A stretch of 64,000 bases of DNA from a virus. Taxonomy: Duplodnaviria; Caudoviricetes. The stretch is from the IMG/VR virus record IMGVR_UViG_3300025909_000005; one strand, written 5' to 3'. The first letter of the stretch is position 1, and every line of letters starts with the position of its first letter. The notes below the pieces were generated by a model. That model ran no database searches and was not told the DNA's origin. It saw only the letters and a program-made list of their open reading frames with translations. The translations under genes and the position numbers were made by a program. Shown piece by piece: positions 5,460-56,095 of this stretch.

Positions 5460-6584
5460 ATGGCATCGAAAGTTCTGACCGTCTACATCGGTCGTTTCCA
5501 ACCACTTCACAACGGACATGTCCACGTTCTGACGAATGCGCTTCGCACGTCGGACCACACGCTGGTGCTCGTCGGCAGCTCGTTCCGTTCCCGCACGATC
5601 AAGAACCCCTTCACGTTCGACGAACGTAAGGAAGTGCTCATGGCCTGGCACGACGACTCGGAGCTCGACAAGAAGAGCCTGACCGTTCTGCCACTGCGTG
5701 ACCAGCCCTACTCAAACTCCAAGTGGATCGAGTCGGTGCAGAAGACGGTCCACAACTTCATGATCGAGAAGCATCTCGACCCCCGCACCACTGAAGTTCG
5801 CCTCACCGGTTCCGACCGTGACGAGTCGACCTGGTACCTGCAGGCCTTCCCGCAGTGGAAGCTGGCGCTCTGCGCTCCAGTTCCTGCCGGCCGCGACCTC
5901 TCAGCCACCAACCTCCGTCATGAGCTGTTCGGCGCCATGCTTGGCACGGCCATCAAGGACGACACCCCTCGCATCACGCAGTTCTTCATCGAGAAGTTCC
6001 GATTCGGCGAGGAGTTCGCGCTCCTCAAGGCCGAGTACGACTTCATCGAGAAGTACAAGAAGGCCTGGAAGGCAGCACCCTACGCACCCTACTTCCTGAC
6101 CGTCGACGGCGTCGTGATCCAATCCGGCCACGTGCTGGTCGTCCGCCGCGGCGCCCTCCCTGGCAAGGGCCTGCTCGCTCTGCCTGGTGGCTTCCTCGAT
6201 CAGAACGAGCGCCTCGCCGACGGCGTGGTTCGTGAACTCATCGAGGAAACGGGTCTGCGTCTGGCTGACGGCAAGAACGCCGAACGCATCACGAAGTCGA
6301 TGCTGCAGGGCGCCATCAAGGCGAAGGAAATCTTCGACGATCCGAATCGCTCGCTGCGTGGTCGCACCGTGACGACTGCCTACCTCATCCGCCTCGATGA
6401 CACCAAGCCGCTTCCGAAGGTGAAGGGCCAGTACGCACCGCTCCACGAGACCGGCGGCAAGCTCGTCGTCGAAACGGCTGACGCGTTCTGGATGCCGATC
6501 GCCGACGCGCTGCGCGACAGCTCGGTGTGGTTCGAGGACCACTACTACATTCTCGAGACGATGCTCGGCTTTGCGAAGGACTGA
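5460..6584 (+). CDS. nadM: bifunctional NMN adenylyltransferase / Nudix hydrolase (NadM-Nudix, NatV-like)
   Basis: GRFQPLHNGH (HxGH) motif; Nudix box PGGFLDQNERLADGVVRELIEETG. Confidence 0.93.
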   Translation: MASKVLTVYIGRFQPLHNGHVHVLTNALRTSDHTLVLVGSSFRSRTIKNPFTFDERKEVLMAWHDDSELDKKSLTVLPLRDQPYSNSKWIESVQKTVHNFMIEKHLDPRTTEVRLTGSDRDESTWYLQAFPQWKLALCAPVPAGRDLSATNLRHELFGAMLGTAIKDDTPRITQFFIEKFRFGEEFALLKAEYDFIEKYKKAWKAAPYAPYFLTVDGVVIQSGHVLVVRRGALPGKGLLALPGGFLDQNERLADGVVRELIEETGLRLADGKNAERITKSMLQGAIKAKEIFDDPNRSLRGRTVTTAYLIRLDDTKPLPKVKGQYAPLHETGGKLVVETADAFWMPIADALRDSSVWFEDHYYILETMLGFAKD

Positions 6585-8921: not shown

Positions 8922-8959
8922 GTGGGTCCTACTCTGTGATACAATGGAGTAGGACCCAC
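8922..8959 (+). promoter_or_regulatory. extended -10 promoter (TGTGATACAAT) in the loop of a perfect 13-bp inverted repeat
   Basis: GTGGGTCCTACTC / GAGTAGGACCCAC. Confidence 0.65.
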
Positions 8960-8971
8960 AATGGAGCAAGC

Positions 8972-10279
8972 ATGGCAGGATCACGAATCGCACCAGTACT
9001 CGCAGTGATTGGAGCTGGTTACGGTGACGAAGGCAAGGGCCTCTTCACCGACTACCTTGCCCGCAAGCACTCGAGATTCCAAGGCACGAAGGTTCCTCTC
9101 GTCATGAGAGGAAACGGTGGTGCACAAGCTGGCCACACTGTCGTCGATGGCACGAGGCGTCACGTCTTTGGCCACATCGGCTCAGGCACGATGGCTGGTG
9201 CTCGTACCTACCTCGCTGAGAACTTCATCGTCAACCCCATGGCCTTCGCTCCTGAACTGGAGAAGGTGAAGGCCCTTGGCATGGACCCGACCGTCTATGC
9301 CCACTCCAACTGCCGTGTCACAACGATCTTCGACATGGCGCTGAATTCCCTGGCCGAGCTCTTCCGAGGTCGCGCCCTTCACGGCTCATGCGGCTACGGC
9401 ATCAACGAGACCGTGACTCGCAACGAGGCGGGCTACTACCTCACGATGGCTGACATCCGTGCAGGCACCGCAGTTCTCGCAACCAAGCTCGAGGACATCC
9501 TTCGCGAGTACGTACCGACCCGGCTCTATGCCATCGGCTACCAGGAATGGGACCGCGACTCGGCCACCCCGCAAGTCAGAGCGCAGGCGGACGTCTACCT
9601 CAAGACCGTCATGGTGCAACAGGACGATCGTGCGGCCCACTGCAGCGCCCTCGCATCGAGGATGCAGAAGGACGTTCACTCGATCCACCTCTACGACCCG
9701 AAGTCGTTCACGTGGTCAGGCGAGCCGATCATCTACGAAGGTGCACAAGGCCTGCTGCTCGACGAGTACCACGGTACGTTCCCGCACGTGACCCGCTCCG
9801 TGACAGGCGTCGCCTCCGCTGTTCGTGCTGCCGCTGAAGCTGGACGCACTCAAGTTCAGCCGTACTACATCACGCGCTGCTACACGACCCGCCACGGTGC
9901 GGGTCCCCTGTACAAGGAAGGCGAGATCATCACCGATGGCGTCCGCTCGCTTCCTGATGAAACGAACATGCCGAACCAGCACCAGGGCACGCTGCGCTTC
10001 GCACCGCTGAATCTCGGCCACCTTCGGAACGCAATCGAGCGAGACATGGAACGTGCACGTCACGTCGGCCAGGTCTTCAACATCGAGGTCCTTCAGCCGA
10101 AGCTTGTCGTCACCCACCTCGACCAGCTCGGCCGCAAGGTGCAGTTTGCTGGATGGAGCTACCTTGTCGAGAGTGAAGCTGCTGCGAAAGCAATCGGCAA
10201 CTTCCTCGAGGTGTCCGTCTCGCACGTTTCCTACGGACCTGAAGCAAAGGATGTACGAGAGTTCACCTCTGAGCTATAA
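8972..10279 (+). CDS. purA: adenylosuccinate synthetase-like protein (divergent PurA family)
   Basis: GAGYGDEGKG P-loop, GAQAGHT, EGAQGLLLD, FPHVTRS, TRHGAGP. Confidence 0.85.
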   Translation: MAGSRIAPVLAVIGAGYGDEGKGLFTDYLARKHSRFQGTKVPLVMRGNGGAQAGHTVVDGTRRHVFGHIGSGTMAGARTYLAENFIVNPMAFAPELEKVKALGMDPTVYAHSNCRVTTIFDMALNSLAELFRGRALHGSCGYGINETVTRNEAGYYLTMADIRAGTAVLATKLEDILREYVPTRLYAIGYQEWDRDSATPQVRAQADVYLKTVMVQQDDRAAHCSALASRMQKDVHSIHLYDPKSFTWSGEPIIYEGAQGLLLDEYHGTFPHVTRSVTGVASAVRAAAEAGRTQVQPYYITRCYTTRHGAGPLYKEGEIITDGVRSLPDETNMPNQHQGTLRFAPLNLGHLRNAIERDMERARHVGQVFNIEVLQPKLVVTHLDQLGRKVQFAGWSYLVESEAAAKAIGNFLEVSVSHVSYGPEAKDVREFTSEL

Positions 10280-10338
10280 TGTTTCCATACAGTCGTGATA
10301 GACACGACTGCCCATCAACTTGATTAGGAGCTAATCAA

Positions 10339-11811
10339 ATGTCTGAAAAACTCGTTCCCTACACCCCGAAGCGCCTCACGTACAACCCGCTGATGCGCAC
10401 GGACAGCTACAAGTTCTCGCACGCCTTCTCGTACCCGAGCAACGCCACTGGCATGTTCTCGTACATCGAGGCCCGCACCGGCGGCCAGGACATCATCGTC
10501 CCTTTCGGCCTGCAGATCTGGCTGAACGAACACCTCTCCATTCCCATCACCGCAGAGAACATCGACGAGGCCGAGCTCTTCGCAGCTGCCCACGGTGAAC
10601 CCTTCAGCCGCGCGGCCTGGGAGAAGGTCCTCAACAAGTATCACGGCTACATGCCCGTGACCATCCGCGCCGTTCCCGAAGGCACGCCGGTTCCGAGCGG
10701 CAACGCCCTCGTGACCATCCAGTGCGAGGACGAAGAGCTCGTCGGCGAAGTCAACAGGATTCTCGTCTTCTGGATCGCCTCGTACCTCGAGACGCAGATG
10801 CTGCGCGCCTACTGGTACCCGACCACTATCGCCACCCTCGACCGTGCGACGAAGCTGCAGATCAAGCGCTTCTACGAAATCGCCGGTGCCGACCTCAACT
10901 TCCTGCCCTTCTCGCTGCACGACTTCGGCGGCCGCGGCGTTTCGTCCGGCGAGACCGCTGCCATCGGCGGTGCCGCCCACCTGCCGTCCTTCATGGGCTC
11001 GGACACGGTCGAAGGCGTTCGCTACGCCAACTTCTACTACGACGAGGCCATGTCGGCCTTCTCCGTCCGTGCGACGGAGCACTCGGTCGCCTGCTCGTTC
11101 GGCCTGTCGGATGAAGACGAGATCGCGTACATCGCCCACCAGCTGAAGGTCTTCGAAGGCAATGGCAACATCATCTCGATGGTCGGCGACTCGAAGAGCA
11201 TCAAGCGCTTCGCAAAGCACCTGTGCACGACCTTCCGTGACCAGATCATGGACCTCCATGAGCGCCTCGGCATGAAGATCGTCTGCCGCCCGGACTCCGG
11301 CGATCCGCTCGAGATCATTCCGATGCTGCTGAAGATGTTCGCTGACGCGTTCCCGACCACGAAGACCAGCGCCGGCTACATCAAGCTCTACCCCGGCATC
11401 GGCATCCTGCAGGGCGACGGCGTCGATCGCATGACGATCCTCACCATCCTCGGCAACATCATGGCCATGAACTTCTCGCCGGACAACATCGTCTTCGGTT
11501 CCGGTGGCGGCCTGCTGCAGAAGGTCAACCGCGACACGTTCAAGTTCGCGATGAAGGCCTCTGCGATCAAGGTCGACGGCAAGTGGAAGGGCATCGTCAA
11601 GGACCCGGAAACCGACCCCGGCAAGAAGTCGAAGGAAGGCATCCTGACCCTCGCGACGAACGGCCTCGGTGACTACCTCACGGTGCGCCTCGACAACTCC
11701 GAGAACCCGTACCCGCGCGGCTATCACGATGCCATGGTCACGGTCTACGACAAGGGCCAGTTCTACAACCATACGACGCTGGCTGAAGTCCGCGCCCGCT
11801 GCGCGGTCTAA
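10339..11811 (+). CDS. nadV: nicotinamide phosphoribosyltransferase (NAMPT/NadV)
   Basis: TDSYKFSH, LHDFGGRG, ATEHS, RPDSGDP, ILQGDG, GSGGGLLQKVNRDT, KDPETDPGKKSK. Confidence 0.93.
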   Translation: MSEKLVPYTPKRLTYNPLMRTDSYKFSHAFSYPSNATGMFSYIEARTGGQDIIVPFGLQIWLNEHLSIPITAENIDEAELFAAAHGEPFSRAAWEKVLNKYHGYMPVTIRAVPEGTPVPSGNALVTIQCEDEELVGEVNRILVFWIASYLETQMLRAYWYPTTIATLDRATKLQIKRFYEIAGADLNFLPFSLHDFGGRGVSSGETAAIGGAAHLPSFMGSDTVEGVRYANFYYDEAMSAFSVRATEHSVACSFGLSDEDEIAYIAHQLKVFEGNGNIISMVGDSKSIKRFAKHLCTTFRDQIMDLHERLGMKIVCRPDSGDPLEIIPMLLKMFADAFPTTKTSAGYIKLYPGIGILQGDGVDRMTILTILGNIMAMNFSPDNIVFGSGGGLLQKVNRDTFKFAMKASAIKVDGKWKGIVKDPETDPGKKSKEGILTLATNGLGDYLTVRLDNSENPYPRGYHDAMVTVYDKGQFYNHTTLAEVRARCAV

Positions 11812-15613: not shown

Positions 15614-15650
15614 ACCAGAGCACAGGTTGAGGCCTGTGCTATAATAGAAA

Positions 15651-16000
15651 CATACTGCAGCAATGCAGTTGTATTGTCGTAATTCGGCATGACTTGAAGG
15701 ATTTGAGACGCGGGTTCGATTCCCGCCGGCTCCACCACAAATCATCTTAGCAAGAACCTTACGCCAACGTTGTGGCAAGGAAAGCAGCAAGGGTGATTTG
15801 TCATGGGGCCGACCAGGCTATCGATCAGGTTACGGAGATGATTGACGCGACACGTCGTAGTGACGTTAAAAACTCGTCTAGTAAACGCAAACGACTCCAA
15901 CTACGCGATCGCCGCTTAATAACCGGCCCGCGCGCGGCATAAGCCACCGTGTAAAAGAATGAGCTAGGACGGACCCGAGGAGCAATCTTTGGGTCCGTCT
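15651..16000 (+). ncRNA. ssrA: two-piece (circularly permuted) tmRNA: acceptor piece ~15651-15737, intervening hairpin 15738-15804, coding piece from 15805; tag (A)ANDSNYAIAA
   Basis: T-arm and CGGCTCC-A-CCA lie upstream of GGGGCCG (7-bp acceptor with G3.U70); tag ORF GCA AAC GAC...GCC GCT TAA at 15887-15919; promoter TATAAT 15640; 3' hairpin 15968-15999. Confidence 0.92.
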
Positions 16001-16068
16001 GCCTTTCCAGGTCGATGGACCTGACTTTCGCTTCCATCGTAAATACGTTCAACTTCAAAGGAGTTGAG

Positions 16069-16503
16069 ATGATGACCCACCTTCTGGCCGCTGTAGTTGC
16101 AGTTGGCCTGGCCGCAGCAACACCCACACCTCGTCAACCCGTGTGGGATGACATAGCGAGTTCGAAGGTGTTCAAGATCAGTCTGGACCTAAAGTCGGTA
16201 GACGTCAAGGCAGACAACACGGTTCATTCTCAGCTGAAGGTCACGTACAACGTGCCCATCCCTGTGAAGGGAAAGAAGAAGACAGGGCACTACTACATCG
16301 AGCAGGTAACTGCAGACTGCGGTGCCGACAAGCTCGTCGTGACTGGTGCCACACTGTTCTCAAAGGACGGTGAGCCTTTGGCGCAAGACGACCACCTCAA
16401 CATGGACCTGCCAAACAACCACATCGATGGCACGTTTGTCACGAGCTTCATGGACCTCATGTGTAACGGCGGCAAAAATACGATTCCTGCGATCAACGTT
16501 TGA
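16069..16503 (+). CDS. secreted/periplasmic protein (adhesin-E-like fold, tentative)
   Basis: signal peptide, two Cys, late promoter. Confidence 0.7.
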   Translation: MMTHLLAAVVAVGLAAATPTPRQPVWDDIASSKVFKISLDLKSVDVKADNTVHSQLKVTYNVPIPVKGKKKTGHYYIEQVTADCGADKLVVTGATLFSKDGEPLAQDDHLNMDLPNNHIDGTFVTSFMDLMCNGGKNTIPAINV

Positions 16504-16666: not shown

Positions 16667-16738
16667 GCCTCGGTAGCTCAGTGGTAGAGCGGATGCCTCT
16701 AAAACGTCGGGTCGTGGGTTCGATTCCCACCCGGGGCA
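16667..16738 (+). tRNA. amber suppressor tRNA (anticodon CTA), no encoded CCA
   Basis: GCCTCGG/CCGGGGC acceptor, loop CTCTAAA, canonical D and T arms. Confidence 0.85.
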
Positions 16739-16753
16739 CAGATAAGGATGACC

Positions 16754-16960
16754 ATGGGACGTAGACTTTCCCTGCATGAAATGAATGCCATCAGGCATGA
16801 GGACGATGTTCGCAACTCGCAGATCAAGCGAGGCGAATGGAAGCCGAAGACAAACAACAACTATCACTGCGTGTGTGGTTGTGGTGCGTTCGCATGCGTG
16901 TTCGTGAGCTCAATTCCGCAGACGGTCCTGCCCATGGACGAACGATCAAATGTCTCTTAG
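16754..16960 (+). CDS. small Cys-containing protein between the two suppressor tRNAs; its TAG stop lies inside the second tRNA
   Basis: RBS TAAGG; HCVCGCG motif. Confidence 0.55.
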   Translation: MGRRLSLHEMNAIRHEDDVRNSQIKRGEWKPKTNNNYHCVCGCGAFACVFVSSIPQTVLPMDERSNVS

Positions 16961-17026
16961 CTCAATGGGTAGAGCGACGGTCTCTAAAACCGTATGTTCC
17001 GGGTTCGAGCCCCGGAGGGACGGCCA
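16951..17026 (+). tRNA. amber suppressor tRNA (anticodon CTA), G73, CCA encoded
   Basis: perfect ACGGT/ACCGT anticodon stem, loop CTCTAAA, TGTCTCT/AGGGACG acceptor. Confidence 0.9.
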
Positions 17027-18381: not shown

Positions 18382-18533
18382 CAAGTTGTAGTTCCGATCA
18401 ACAACCGACGAGGCACCCGAAATGTAAGTCCGACCCTGAGTTTCATCACACAGGCTAACGATTTTGAGTTTCGAGTTTCATGGGAACCTTCTCCATGGTA
18501 AAAAGGTTCCCCAACTTCCCAAGGAAGACCATC

Positions 18534-18890
18534 ATGCAATCGTAGATCCGCGAAGACGCCAAGACCTATCTGTACACCATCTCTCGCCGCGACATCCCTC
18601 TCGCGCAACAAGCTGTGCAAGCCGGCCACGCCGCCCTTGAACACGCTTACCTCTACGGCCGTCCGGCCGACCATCACCCCTCCTACATTCACCTGACGAT
18701 TCGAGACAAGGAACGGCTCGAGAAGCAACGGCGTGCGCTCCAAGAAGCTGGCATTCCGACGGCCGAGTTCCACGAACCGTACAAGGACTGGGGTCTCACC
18801 GCCATTTCCTGCCTCCTCACCGAGGAACAACGTCACCACCTGAAGGGGCTCCAGCTGTGGCGCCTCCCCACCCAAGGAGAAGAAGCATGA
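18534..18890 (+). CDS. peptidyl-tRNA hydrolase type 2-like protein with in-frame TAG at codon 4 (readthrough required)
   Basis: RBS AAGGA 8 nt before ATG CAA TCG TAG; frame continues YLYTISRRDIPLAQQAVQAGHAALE...FHEP...LTAI. Confidence 0.75.
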
Positions 18891-19817: not shown

Positions 19818-19851
19818 TGCTATTACCCGCTCGCTCACTAAGGAAAGTAAC

Positions 19852-20421
19852 ATGACGTAGGTTTTCTCCCCCAAGCTGCAGGCTCTTCGTGAGAAGATGG
19901 CCGCCTGCAACCAGACCCAAGGCCAGACCATTCTCCAGCACGGCGAGTCCGTGGCCGAGTGGTACAAGGACCTGATTGGTGCACGCACACGTGAGTGGCG
20001 CCTGCCTGACTGGTTCGATCCCGCCCTCTTCGAGCTCTGCCCAGATGTGGGGACGATGGAGCGCTACCACATCTACCATGATTGTGGTAAGCCGTACTGC
20101 CGTACGGTTGACGAAGAAGGTCGTCAACACTTCCCTGACCATGCCCGTATCAGCGCCTCCATCTGGCGCGTGACCGGTGGCGACGCGGCTGTTGCTCGTC
20201 TCATCGAACACGACATGGACATGCACACCCTCAAGCCGGCAGATGCCGACACCTACCTGCACCTGGACATTGCTCCAGCTCTGCTTCTCACCGCCCTTGC
20301 TGAACTGCACTCCAACGCCGACATGTTCGGCGGGATCGAGAGCACGTCCTTCAAGATCAAGTTCAAGAACCTCAACAAGCTCGGCAACCGCCTCATCAAC
20401 CGCATCAAGGAGATCGCATAA
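19852..20421 (+). CDS. HD-domain phosphohydrolase with in-frame TAG at codon 3
   Basis: RBS TAAGGA 7 nt before ATG ACG TAG; in frame with ATG 19897; HG..V, YHDCGKP, HFPDHA, HDMDMH. Confidence 0.75.
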
Positions 20422-41765: not shown

Positions 41766-41979
41766 AGCTGAGCGTCTGTGGGCAGGTTTCATTCAGCTCT
41801 TGAATGAGCGGCGGCCCCTCGGCAAGCACGATGACTTCATCCCGCACAAGTCGTTCATCGGCCCGATCGACGGCTACAAGAAGATCTTCCTCGAAGCTGC
41901 TCGTAACATGGACAAGGAAGAAAGTGGGATACAGCACAACATTTCTGGGGCTGGCGAAGTTCCGCAAACCCCTGACTGA
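41755..41979 (+). CDS. hypothetical protein
   Basis: RBS GGAG. Confidence 0.5.
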   Translation: MTSEAERLWAGFIQLLNERRPLGKHDDFIPHKSFIGPIDGYKKIFLEAARNMDKEESGIQHNISGAGEVPQTPD

Positions 41980-42286
41980 CGAGCAGCTCGGTATCATCCA
42001 GAGCTACATCGACGACGAGAGCGCAGACCTCGAGCTGGCTGGTCGAGATGAGGACGGCAACTGGATCGACTACGATGCACTGAAGTGGAACGGAGCCGAG
42101 AAGACCTACGACATGGTCAGGTGGCTCTTCGAAATTGGCGAGCTCCTGCAGGAGAACGATCCTGAGCAGGGCTTTGCTGATGGCTACCTCGAGGCGTACG
42201 GCGAAAGCGCGGGCGACCTGTGGTGTGTCAAGTTCAAGGATGGCCTCGCCTACGAGGTCGGCGCAAAGTTGGTACCAGACGAATAG
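41924..42286 (+). CDS. hypothetical phage protein (MGYST.F family); ends in TAG
   Basis: GTG start after AAGGA; LKWNGAEKTY..GESAGDLW. Confidence 0.65.
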   Translation: MGYSTTFLGLAKFRKPLTDEQLGIIQSYIDDESADLELAGRDEDGNWIDYDALKWNGAEKTYDMVRWLFEIGELLQENDPEQGFADGYLEAYGESAGDLWCVKFKDGLAYEVGAKLVPDE

Positions 42287-42295
42287 GAGAGAAGC

Positions 42296-42403
42296 ATGAA
42301 GCAAGAAATGGCAGCAATGAATGTCGCGAGCATCGTCGCGATGGTCCTGTCGGCAGGCCTGATCGTTGGCCTGATCTGGGCCGCGGTCCACTTCTATGGT
42401 TGA
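42296..42403 (+). CDS. 35-aa membrane peptide
   Basis: RBS TAGGAG, one TM helix. Confidence 0.55.
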   Translation: MKQEMAAMNVASIVAMVLSAGLIVGLIWAAVHFYG

Positions 42404-54794: not shown

Positions 54795-54992
54795 ATGAAT
54801 CACGCAGAGCTGCAAGCCATCGTCAACGAGAACATGGACAACGCGTTGGACAACGCGCCCGAGTTCATTAAGACGGCGTCAAACCTCGCCATCGCCGAGG
54901 ACATGCTGGAGTACTGTGCAGACTTCGAGTTCCTCGACCTATCGCCTGACGACCTGGTCCCCTTCATCGAAACATGGTGGAACAAGGTATGA
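54795..54992 (+). CDS. acidic hypothetical protein
   Basis: near-leaderless after TATAAT. Confidence 0.6.
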   Translation: MNHAELQAIVNENMDNALDNAPEFIKTASNLAIAEDMLEYCADFEFLDLSPDDLVPFIETWWNKV

Positions 54993-56095
54993 AGATCTAC
55001 ATCGTCGGTGGCGCAGTTCGCGACGCCGCAATGGGCCTGAAAGCTAAGGACGAGGACTACGTCGTCGTTGGCGCGACGCCTGAAGAGATGCTGGCCAAGG
55101 GCTTCAAGCAGGTCGGCGCAGACTTCCCAGTTTTCCTGCACCCGCAGAGCGGTGATGAATGGGCTCTGGCACGGACGGAACGCAAGTCAGGTTCCGGCTA
55201 CCTGGGCTTCGACGTCGAAACTGACGGCGTGACGCTGGAAGAAGACCTGTCGCGTCGCGACCTGACGATGAACGCAATGGCCATCGCCATTGGCTCCACA
55301 GAGATCATCGACCCATTCGGCGGTCTGAACGACATCAAGAACAGGGTGCTGCGCCACATCGGCCCGGCCTTTGCTGAGGACCCGCTGCGCGTCATCCGCC
55401 TGGCTCGCTTCTTTGCTCGCTACGAAGACTTCGTCGTCGCTGAGGAAACTGCCGAGCTGTGCAAGCAGGTGGTCAACAGCGGTGAGCTGGATGCCCTGCC
55501 GTTCGAGCGCTTCTGGGCCGAACTGGAGAAGGTCTTCACTGAGAAGCGGCCTGATCGCTTCTTCCAGGCGCTGCACGAAATGGGTGCGCTGAAGAAGGTG
55601 CGGTTCTTCCAACGCGTCTTTGGCGACACGCCGATCCAAACGCTGATGGGCGTTGCTGAAAAGCTGAAGCTGTCTCAAGAACAGCGCGTTCGTCAGTTCG
55701 TCGCCCTCGTCGGCACGCAGAAGGAACTGAAGAACGTTGCGGCGTCGACCGAGATCATGGACGTGCACCGCAACCTGCGCTTCGCGCGTTCGATCAAGAA
55801 GGTCGTCAACCGAGAAAGCGTGCATGCCTTCATCAAGCAGGCAGGCGGCTTTCAACGCGGTGAACACCACCTGACTCAGCAGTCGCTGGATGCACTGGAC
55901 GCGATCTCGTTGTCTCATCAACTGGGTCTGGATGACTTCTCTTCGCTGGCAGAGGGCTGGTTCATGATGGCCTGGATGAACGCCACGCGTGTAGGACAAG
56001 CCGACTTCCCTGAGCTCTCGGGCAAGGAGCTGGGCGAGGCCATCAAGAACAAGCGCATGGACCTGATCATGAGCTCGATCAACATGTCAACCTGA
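54989..56095 (+). CDS. cca: tRNA nucleotidyltransferase (class II CCA-adding enzyme, short form without HD domain)
   Basis: IVGGAVRD, DEDYVV, ALARTERK, EEDLSRRDLTMNAMA, DPFGG, EDPLRVIRLARF. Confidence 0.93.
   Translation: MKIYIVGGAVRDAAMGLKAKDEDYVVVGATPEEMLAKGFKQVGADFPVFLHPQSGDEWALARTERKSGSGYLGFDVETDGVTLEEDLSRRDLTMNAMAIAIGSTEIIDPFGGLNDIKNRVLRHIGPAFAEDPLRVIRLARFFARYEDFVVAEETAELCKQVVNSGELDALPFERFWAELEKVFTEKRPDRFFQALHEMGALKKVRFFQRVFGDTPIQTLMGVAEKLKLSQEQRVRQFVALVGTQKELKNVAASTEIMDVHRNLRFARSIKKVVNRESVHAFIKQAGGFQRGEHHLTQQSLDALDAISLSHQLGLDDFSSLAEGWFMMAWMNATRVGQADFPELSGKELGEAIKNKRMDLIMSSINMST

Follow-up and report, generated by a model that had tools for sequence, protein, structure and literature searches.

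A 64,000-nucleotide stretch of the virus record IMGVR_UViG_3300025909_000005 (Duplodnaviria; Caudoviricetes), referred to here as the window, carries a gene for a PTH2-like protein that is interrupted at its fourth codon by an in-frame TAG. As comparison across phages shows, this early stop codon, which we call the gate, is conserved, corresponds to the stop codon read by a neighbouring suppressor tRNA and is restricted to two genes, the second of which encodes an HD-domain protein. Judged from these sequence patterns, translation of the PTH2-like gene very probably depends on the phage's own suppressor tRNA, and the gate would be a variant form of control by stop-codon read-through; a full-text search of the literature found no description of such an early-stop gate.

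A preliminary description of this stretch, made from the letters alone, had read a Shine-Dalgarno (SD) motif AAGGA, a spacer of eight nucleotides (nt), the leader ATG CAA TCG TAG and then an open frame between 18521 and 18890, and this reading holds throughout (Table 1). From ATC 18546, the codon after the gate, the frame stays open for 114 codons to TGA 18888-18890, which overlaps the ATG of the next gene at 18887, and the part of the product beyond the TAG comprises 114 amino acids. Equally accurate was the statement that no ATG, GTG or TTG intervenes between the gate and GTG 18615, which lies 24 codons on, has no SD motif upstream and would yield an open reading frame (ORF) of 91 amino acids. 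What is found is an in-frame stop with an SD motif and a start codon upstream and conserved, needed coding sequence downstream. An assembly error is ruled out, since L090, a contig assembled from another metagenome sample, has exactly this leader. The 150-nt spacer 5' of the gene contains a 9-bp hairpin (GGGAACCUU...AAGGUUCCC) at 18482-18513; folding of 18382-18560 as a structured leader RNA was no better than that of shuffled sequences (z -0.58), an Rfam scan matched nothing besides the transfer-messenger RNA (tmRNA) and tRNAs, and the surroundings of the gene yielded neither a convincing promoter nor a convincing terminator.

The preliminary description had further proposed that the protein is related to PTH2 and that an intact domain needs the stretch between the TAG and GTG 18615, and the profile, alignment and structure comparisons bear out both proposals, the 91-residue form scoring worse and homologues keeping the upstream strand. 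In an alignment of 29 homologues from viral contigs, numbered from the residue after the TAG, R14, Q21, Q22, A23, Q25, A26, H28, L58, F75, E77 and T85 are invariant and D16 is nearly so. GTG 18615 corresponds to V24, in the middle of the sequence QQAVQAGHA that represents the invariant motif QQAxQAxHA, and initiation there would forfeit strand 1 as well as R14, D16, Q21, Q22 and A23. Consistent with this, tblastn alignments of the homologues begin at query residue 8-10, and the Pfam PTH2 model (PF01981) matches the 118-residue form at 12.8 bits (E 0.14) and the 91-residue form not at all. A profile of the 29-sequence alignment matched structures of archaeal Pth2 from end to end (2zv3, E 1e-4; 1rzw, E 3e-4). 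The AlphaFold model of the protein, in which strand 1 spans residues 7-14, is confident (predicted local distance difference test, pLDDT, 91.3), and Foldseek aligned it with 3erj, 2zv3 and 1q7s at template-modelling (TM) scores of 0.76, 0.70 and 0.65, all with probability 1.00. The structure matches comprise several archaeal Pth2 proteins, human Bit1 and PTRHD1 (TM 0.63-0.76), and PTRHD1 and archaeal Pth2 likewise fill the list of Swiss-Prot structure matches. As modelled, the alpha/beta fold of PTH2 extends over the whole domain, and we regard the fold assignment as sound.

The phage proteins share this full-length fold with archaeal and eukaryotic Pth2 (PF01981; 2zv3, 3erj, 1wn2, 1xty and 1q7s) and with PTRHD1, and the pattern R-x-D-L ... 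A-Q-x-x-H-A is common to both groups. In contrast, the GKGK-x-x-AQ segment of Pth2 is replaced in the phage family by the invariant QQAxQAxHA, and the phage family is tied genomically to suppressor tRNAs. The motif defines a PTH2-fold subfamily that, like its HD partner, is associated in its genomes with suppressor tRNAs. A PHROG profile, phrog_34073, is matched by window positions 18681-18863 and covers the C-terminal two thirds of the domain only; its source was probably gene calls that the gate had shortened.

A tblastn search of cultured phages returned 41 records, mostly of jumbo phages, among which gated leaders read ATG ACG CAC TAG AAT in Serratia phage BF, ATG TTG TAG ATT in Ralstonia phage RsoM2USA, ATG ACT TAG ATT in Acinetobacter phage ME3, ATG GCA CAA TAG AAT in Pectobacterium phage CBB, ATG GCT CAC TAG AAT in Xanthomonas phage XbC2 and ATG AAG TAG ACC in Xanthomonas phage XacN1. 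Scans of IMG/VR and of JGI metagenomes contributed 164 further loci, and dereplication at 90% identity left 110 genes. We considered a homologue strictly gated when the interval from its upstream in-frame stop to strand 1 has no canonical start and when an in-frame start stands 1-8 codons ahead of that stop. By this definition 37 of the 110 dereplicated homologues are gated, the stop being TAG in 34, TGA in two and TAA in one. In 36 of these 37 homologues the leader start has an SD-like motif upstream, and start, stop and downstream ORF share one frame in every one of the 37 representatives. Counting the start, leaders are 1-8 codons long, usually 1-4, with three the commonest length, and six are a bare start followed by the stop. 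Since the sense codons of the leaders vary, the last of them being TCG, TTG, CTC, AAG, CTG, GCC, ACT, CAC and others, and since six leaders have none beyond the start, selection acts on the stop codon and its position and not on the leader peptide. The base 3' of the gate stop is A in 27 genes, G in nine and C in one, with no T (a purine in 36 of 37), and a purine after the stop reportedly favours suppression in Escherichia coli (Bossi 1983; Miller and Albertini 1983). At least six more homologues carry the same leader and TAG followed by a canonical start or a fused domain; in L059 and L121 the codon immediately after the gate is a canonical ATG or GTG. A tRNA gene with anticodon CUA (tRNA-CUA) lies within about 6 kb of 25 of the 34 TAG-gated representatives, and none of the 34 is accompanied by a tRNA-UCA only. 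Public annotation systematically misses or truncates gated genes (BF, RsoM2USA, CBB, XbC2, ME3 and the 77-position PHROG profile); in the public records of the cultured gated phages, the PTH2-like gene is either unannotated or assigned a start that is too late.

The second gated gene of the window, about 1 kb downstream of the first, encodes a protein whose conserved N-terminal helix lies upstream of the internal ATG 19897. Residues H27, H73-D74, H94 and D118, the H...HD...D signature, are invariant, and the model (pLDDT 96) superposes on residues 254-449 of the Aquifex CC-adding enzyme (PDB 3wfo-3wfs) with a TM score of about 0.65, other HD phosphohydrolases giving weaker fold matches; HD signature and HD fold are therefore both present, at a Pfam HD (PF01966) score of 18.6 bits that falls below the 22-bit threshold. 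The fold of the HD and C-terminal region is shared with class II tRNA nucleotidyltransferases such as the Aquifex enzyme, whereas the gated HD protein stands alone at 186 amino acids. About 20 loci have an early TAG in their HD gene, typically as ATG ACG TAG GTT, and in one locus (L054) the TAG occupies another position. In CBB, XbC2 and BF the HD gene follows directly 3' of the PTH2-like gene (L045 5327-5890, L046 5327-5890 and L001 921-1480, respectively), starts with a plain ATG and contains a conserved internal TAG at codon 47 (..ELDTG#GD..), where the GenBank annotation breaks into two small ORFs. A fusion of the HD and PTH2-like domains, encoded by one ORF with one gate, is present in XacN1 and in L114, indicating that the two proteins are functionally linked; the XacN1 fusion (ORF364; L044 4440-5303) lies behind ATG AAG TAG, and its annotated start is an ATG five codons past the TAG. 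The HD and PTH2-like proteins thus seem, from these gene arrangements, to have been made dependent on amber suppression repeatedly. A predicted complex of the two proteins scored 0.00, which weighs neither way. Elsewhere in the window, positions 54974-56095 hold a CCA-adding-enzyme-like gene, which gave no HD match.

Close to the PTH2-like gene, 1.5-1.9 kb upstream on the same strand and just 3' of a tmRNA gene, is the likely source of amber suppression, a pair of tRNA-CUA genes that are most likely the decoders of the gate TAG. The first has a G1-C72 pair and A73 and does not encode its CCA end; the second has U1.G72 and G73, in which it resembles Gln or Trp tRNAs, encodes CCA and is about 78% identical to mycobacteriophage tRNA-Trp genes. 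Rfam scores the tmRNA at 91.9 bits with the beta_tmRNA model and at 102 bits with tmRNA_permuted, the two-piece form. The order tmRNA, suppressor tRNA(s), PTH2-like gene, HD gene is conserved, and the tmRNA occupies the same relative position in L009, L010, L014, L015, L048 and L051-L058. An Adhesin_E-like ORF (16015-16503) lies between the tmRNA and the suppressor tRNAs.

Table 1. Coordinates of the gated genes and of the neighbouring RNA genes in the window.
Feature	Position	Strand	Details
Shine-Dalgarno AAGGA of the PTH2-like gene	18521..18525	+	read directly; 8 nt before ATG 18534
Leader mini-frame ATG CAA TCG TAG	18534..18545	+	gate TAG 18543-18545, next base A
Full PTH2-like gene	18534..18890	+	118 amino acids if TAG decoded
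Shine-Dalgarno TAAGGA of the HD gene	19839..19844	+	read directly; 7 nt before ATG 19852
Gated HD gene, ATG ACG TAG (TAG 19858-19860)	19852..20421	+	186-amino-acid HD-domain protein after the gate
tmRNA, permuted, beta-proteobacterial type, tag ANDSNYAIAA	15573..16010	+	ARAGORN 15645-16010; Rfam
Amber suppressor tRNA 1, anticodon CUA	16667..16739	+	ARAGORN; Rfam tRNA 62.4 bits
Amber suppressor tRNA 2, anticodon CUA	16951..17026	+	ARAGORN; Rfam tRNA 61.9 bits

Outside the two gates, the window uses TAG sparingly and as a terminator. It looks like part of a large phage, with a GC content of 57%, 28 tRNA genes and one tmRNA (ARAGORN), and with scored ORFs of coding-like codon usage that all lie on the plus strand and tile its length. 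Among 99 confident ORFs, 63 end in TGA, 33 in TAA and three in TAG, and counting TAG as sense lengthens ORFs little compared with the other stops. In-frame TAGs number two among about 100 genes, both at codons 3-4, and a sense reading of TAG joins coding sequence only at these two sites, in the PTH2-like and HD genes. TAG is not generally reassigned in the window; the many in-frame TAGs and the disuse of TAG as terminator that characterize code 15, in which TAG encodes an amino acid, are not found in these 64 kb. We also scanned the plus strand for a TAG separated by at most five codons from a start codon with an SD motif and followed by 60 or more open codons, and recovered exactly two sites, the PTH2-like gene and the HD gene (TAG 19858); as only two such sites exist on this strand, the early-TAG arrangement is more than chance. 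One of the three TAG-ended ORFs, encoding 160 amino acids (41804-42403), continues after its TAG for 38 in-frame, coding-like codons (score 0.46) to a TGA, a stretch that could be a C-terminal read-through extension.

The one informative exception to the pairing of TAG with CUA is L015, a 342,591-bp record with terminal repeats that is rated complete. Here the leader of the PTH2-like gene reads ATG GAA TCG TGA GTC, that of the HD gene reads ATG ACA TGG TCG TGA GTC, and the anticodon is UCA in each of the two tRNAs at the syntenic position. The complete genome contains these two tRNA-UCA genes and no tRNA-CUA, and when its entire sequence was scanned for early TGA gates led by ATG, exactly the PTH2-like and HD genes were recovered. 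In the protein tree L015 is nested among TAG/CUA phages as sister to L014, indicating a derived, joint change of lock and key, and its four coordinated changes would be hard to explain unless those tRNAs read the stop. Across the loci, then, the cognate tRNA was found in the same genome in 25 TAG/CUA cases with no mismatch, and stop and anticodon changed together in one switched lineage. The CUA and UCA tRNAs have diverged too far to separate anticodon mutation from gene replacement. TAG ends 3% of genes in the window versus 13% in the opal-type L015 genome, a difference that is supportive only.

The protein tree resolves two large clades. Clade I comprises jumbo-phage-like genomes, mostly of standard code, in which nearly all of the genes are gated. 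Clade II (L023-L043 and L117-L168) comprises lower-GC genomes in which the PTH2-like gene has a plain ATG and, in some copies, internal TAGs that suggest fully recoded genomes, and in which a tRNA-CUA typically begins about 10-60 nt past the end of the gene. Of all 72 representatives with a plain start, 50 are flanked by a tRNA-CUA. As the QQAxQAxHA subfamily is tied to suppressor tRNAs in both clades, a role concerning those tRNAs or their consequences is suggested. In RaK2 the PTH2-like gene has a plain ATG, and neither a tRNA-CUA nor an adjacent HD gene was found within 20 kb on either side, a pattern that fits the link between gate and suppressor and lends it weak support.

Several other explanations of the interrupted frame were weighed. 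The leader might be a tiny upstream ORF after which ribosomes terminate and restart at the codon that follows, which here is ATC, or at a different non-canonical codon, with no suppressor needed. In line with such restarting, the codon after the stop is ATT, ATC, ATA or GTT, all weak near-cognate starts, in 22 of the 37 gated genes, and in L059 and L121 the codon right after the TAG is a canonical start. However, AAC, AAT, ACA, ACC or CAC, two positions away from ATG, follows the stop in 12 of the 37, and GTA or GTC, which depart from GTG at the third base, in a further three. Restarting would moreover suit any stop, yet 34 of the 37 gates are TAG in genomes where TAG ends 3-13% of genes, and it leaves unexplained why both TGA gates stand alongside tRNA-UCA suppressors; we consider this explanation unlikely. 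A lambda-bar-like minigene, in which the leader itself is functional by shedding peptidyl-tRNA and the PTH2-like frame is secondary or decaying, is suggested by leaders of 1-4 codons that end in a stop and by the Pth-like neighbour. The variable last sense codon and the six leaders of start and stop only imply that no particular tRNA is targeted, and the downstream frame is under strong purifying selection among sequences that are 25-80% identical, making a minigene very unlikely.

Even less probable is that the real product is the 91-residue protein from GTG 18615, behind an upstream frame open by chance. This form is the longest standard ORF, and PHROG 34073 scores it and the long form alike, though with a profile of 77 positions that matches only residues 50-110. 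Against it stand a start codon that cuts QQAVQAGHA and removes strand 1 and the conserved residues listed above, homologues that align from residue 8-10, the lack of an SD motif at the GTG and the silence of Pfam PTH2. Comparably hard to credit is a genome-wide code 15, as in crAss-like and Lak phages. Suppressor tRNAs are indeed present in the window, and in more distant low-GC relatives with plain starts internal TAGs occur and the gene is immediately followed by a tRNA-CUA, but the two in-frame TAGs among about 100 genes, both at codons 3-4, the three ORFs that end in TAG and the small gain in ORF length from a sense TAG point the other way, and for the window itself code 15 is excluded by those two in-frame TAGs and three TAG-ended ORFs. 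As to a pseudogene or a sequencing error, which an in-frame stop at codon 4 would ordinarily suggest, the same DNA was recovered from two samples (L089 and L090), and the gate has been kept in dozens of divergent phages, cultured ones included; we give an error next to no credence, and decay is refuted by this conservation.

Set against dependence on the phage's own suppressor tRNA are a number of observations. Nine of the 34 TAG-gated representatives have no tRNA-CUA in the flanks examined, and while some of these are short contigs, several extend about 6 kb on each side, so that in these the tRNA would have to lie farther away. The single TAA gate (L116; ATG CAA CCG TTT TCG TAA GTA, at about 5970-6000) has no suppressor tRNA in 10.7 kb, and may represent an ochre form of the gate or one in decay. 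The covariation of stop and anticodon comes from one lineage, L015, with its four coordinated changes, and TGA ends about half of the genes in that genome, which means that suppression must be partial. TAG also still serves as a terminator in some relatives, by crude ORF counts on short loci that give a mixed picture. The decoding of UAG is itself something that we infer from the arrangement of the genes. Lastly, peptidyl-tRNA hydrolase chemistry is uncertain for the PTH2-like protein, because its Pfam score of 12.8 bits falls short of the PTH2 gathering threshold (23 bits) and because an invariant Gln occupies the position of the Pth2 lysine. The catalytic residues of Pth2, which from the Sulfolobus solfataricus mutagenesis literature we take to be the Lys of the GKGK loop and the Asp and Thr of the D-x-G-x-T segment, are not retained: in a hidden Markov model alignment to 2zv3 the Lys corresponds to the invariant Q21, the Asp to the invariant E77 and the Thr to D or Y. 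The His of AQxxHA is retained in the phage family.

If the gate does operate through the suppressor tRNA, ribosomes would initiate at AUG 18534, directed by the AAGGA motif 8 nt upstream, and would reach UAG at codon 4. Where release factor 1 (RF1) wins, fMet-Gln-Ser alone would be released; where a phage tRNA-CUA (16667-16739 or 16951-17026) decodes the UAG, the 118-residue PTH2-fold protein would be made. The identity of the inserted residue would be irrelevant because the gate lies in a non-conserved N-terminal tail. The HD gene would be under the same gate (ATG ACG TAG), and since both genes are gated, the output of both would be tied to the level of processed, charged suppressor tRNA relative to RF1. 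By analogy with their structural relatives, the PTH2-like protein would presumably hydrolyse the ester that links a peptidyl or acyl group to the 3' end of a tRNA, and the HD protein would be a phosphoesterase with tRNA 3' ends as its substrate. The purpose of such control can be approached by speculation: it might match tRNA recycling and ribosome rescue, jointly with the neighbouring tmRNA, to the amount of read-through; it might delay both enzymes until the phage tRNA pool has been built; or it might provide feedback on the suppressor itself.

Suppressor tRNAs have been described before in phages of this kind. The paper on XacN1, which carries two tRNA-CUA genes, extended 18 terminal ambers by read-through in silico, gained no added similarity and judged the targets not identifiable (PMC5852040), while that on RsoM2USA notes the tRNA and infers several potential targets only (PMC8504454). 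Both phages have the same tRNA-CUA genes and a gated homologue, and as both papers considered terminal stops only, early-leader stops are candidate targets. Recoded phages encode suppressor tRNAs of their own, for code 15 (TAG to Gln) or code 4 (TGA to Trp), and recoding has been proposed to time lysis and late gene expression (Borges et al., bioRxiv 10.1101/2021.08.26.457843); neither this study nor the theta-ribozyme paper mentions a hydrolase or Pth beside suppressor tRNAs. Recoded and gated phages are alike in needing a phage suppressor tRNA to translate genes with in-frame stops. In contrast to the recoded phages, the standard code is kept here, two genes have one stop each at codons 2-5 of a dispensable leader, the stop would be a switch and not the codon for a needed residue, and the targets are putative tRNA-end enzymes in place of lysis or structural genes. 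The early UGA of prfB, the gene for RF2, similarly ties output to termination versus alternative decoding near the start of an ORF (PMC12421855); in prfB, however, escape is by +1 frameshifting and the gene senses its own product, whereas the gates would use a dedicated suppressor tRNA with the frame unchanged. No +1 arrangement of the prfB type was found.

Considering these findings jointly, we propose, with somewhat more confidence than doubt, that the suppressor tRNAs of standard-code jumbo phages are mainly regulators, in which an early stop would be the lock and the tRNA the key on two genes concerned with tRNA 3' ends, a PTH2-like hydrolase and a CCA-enzyme-like HD phosphoesterase; that this pair can be recoded from UAG/CUA to UGA/UCA; and that the PTH2-like protein acts in the service of the suppressor tRNA, perhaps recycling it or limiting its amount. 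If this is true, the recoding of lock and key from UAG/CUA to UGA/UCA would make a naturally orthogonal translational switch, and the tight pairing of the PTH2-like protein with suppressor tRNAs, found also in fully recoded phages, would imply that the suppressor tRNA itself is what the protein serves. Many standard-code jumbo phages carry amber or opal suppressor tRNAs for which no target had been found, and the gated genes are concrete candidates. A natural tRNA-operated switch with co-evolved codon and anticodon would bear on phage gene regulation and on how stop-codon reassignment begins, and would offer a ready-made orthogonal expression gate.

A search of GenBank for near-identical phages found none, matches being at the tRNA level only. 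Among the other genes of the window, positions 8936-11811 encode an adenylosuccinate-synthetase-like protein and NAMPT, pointing to nucleotide and NAD salvage.

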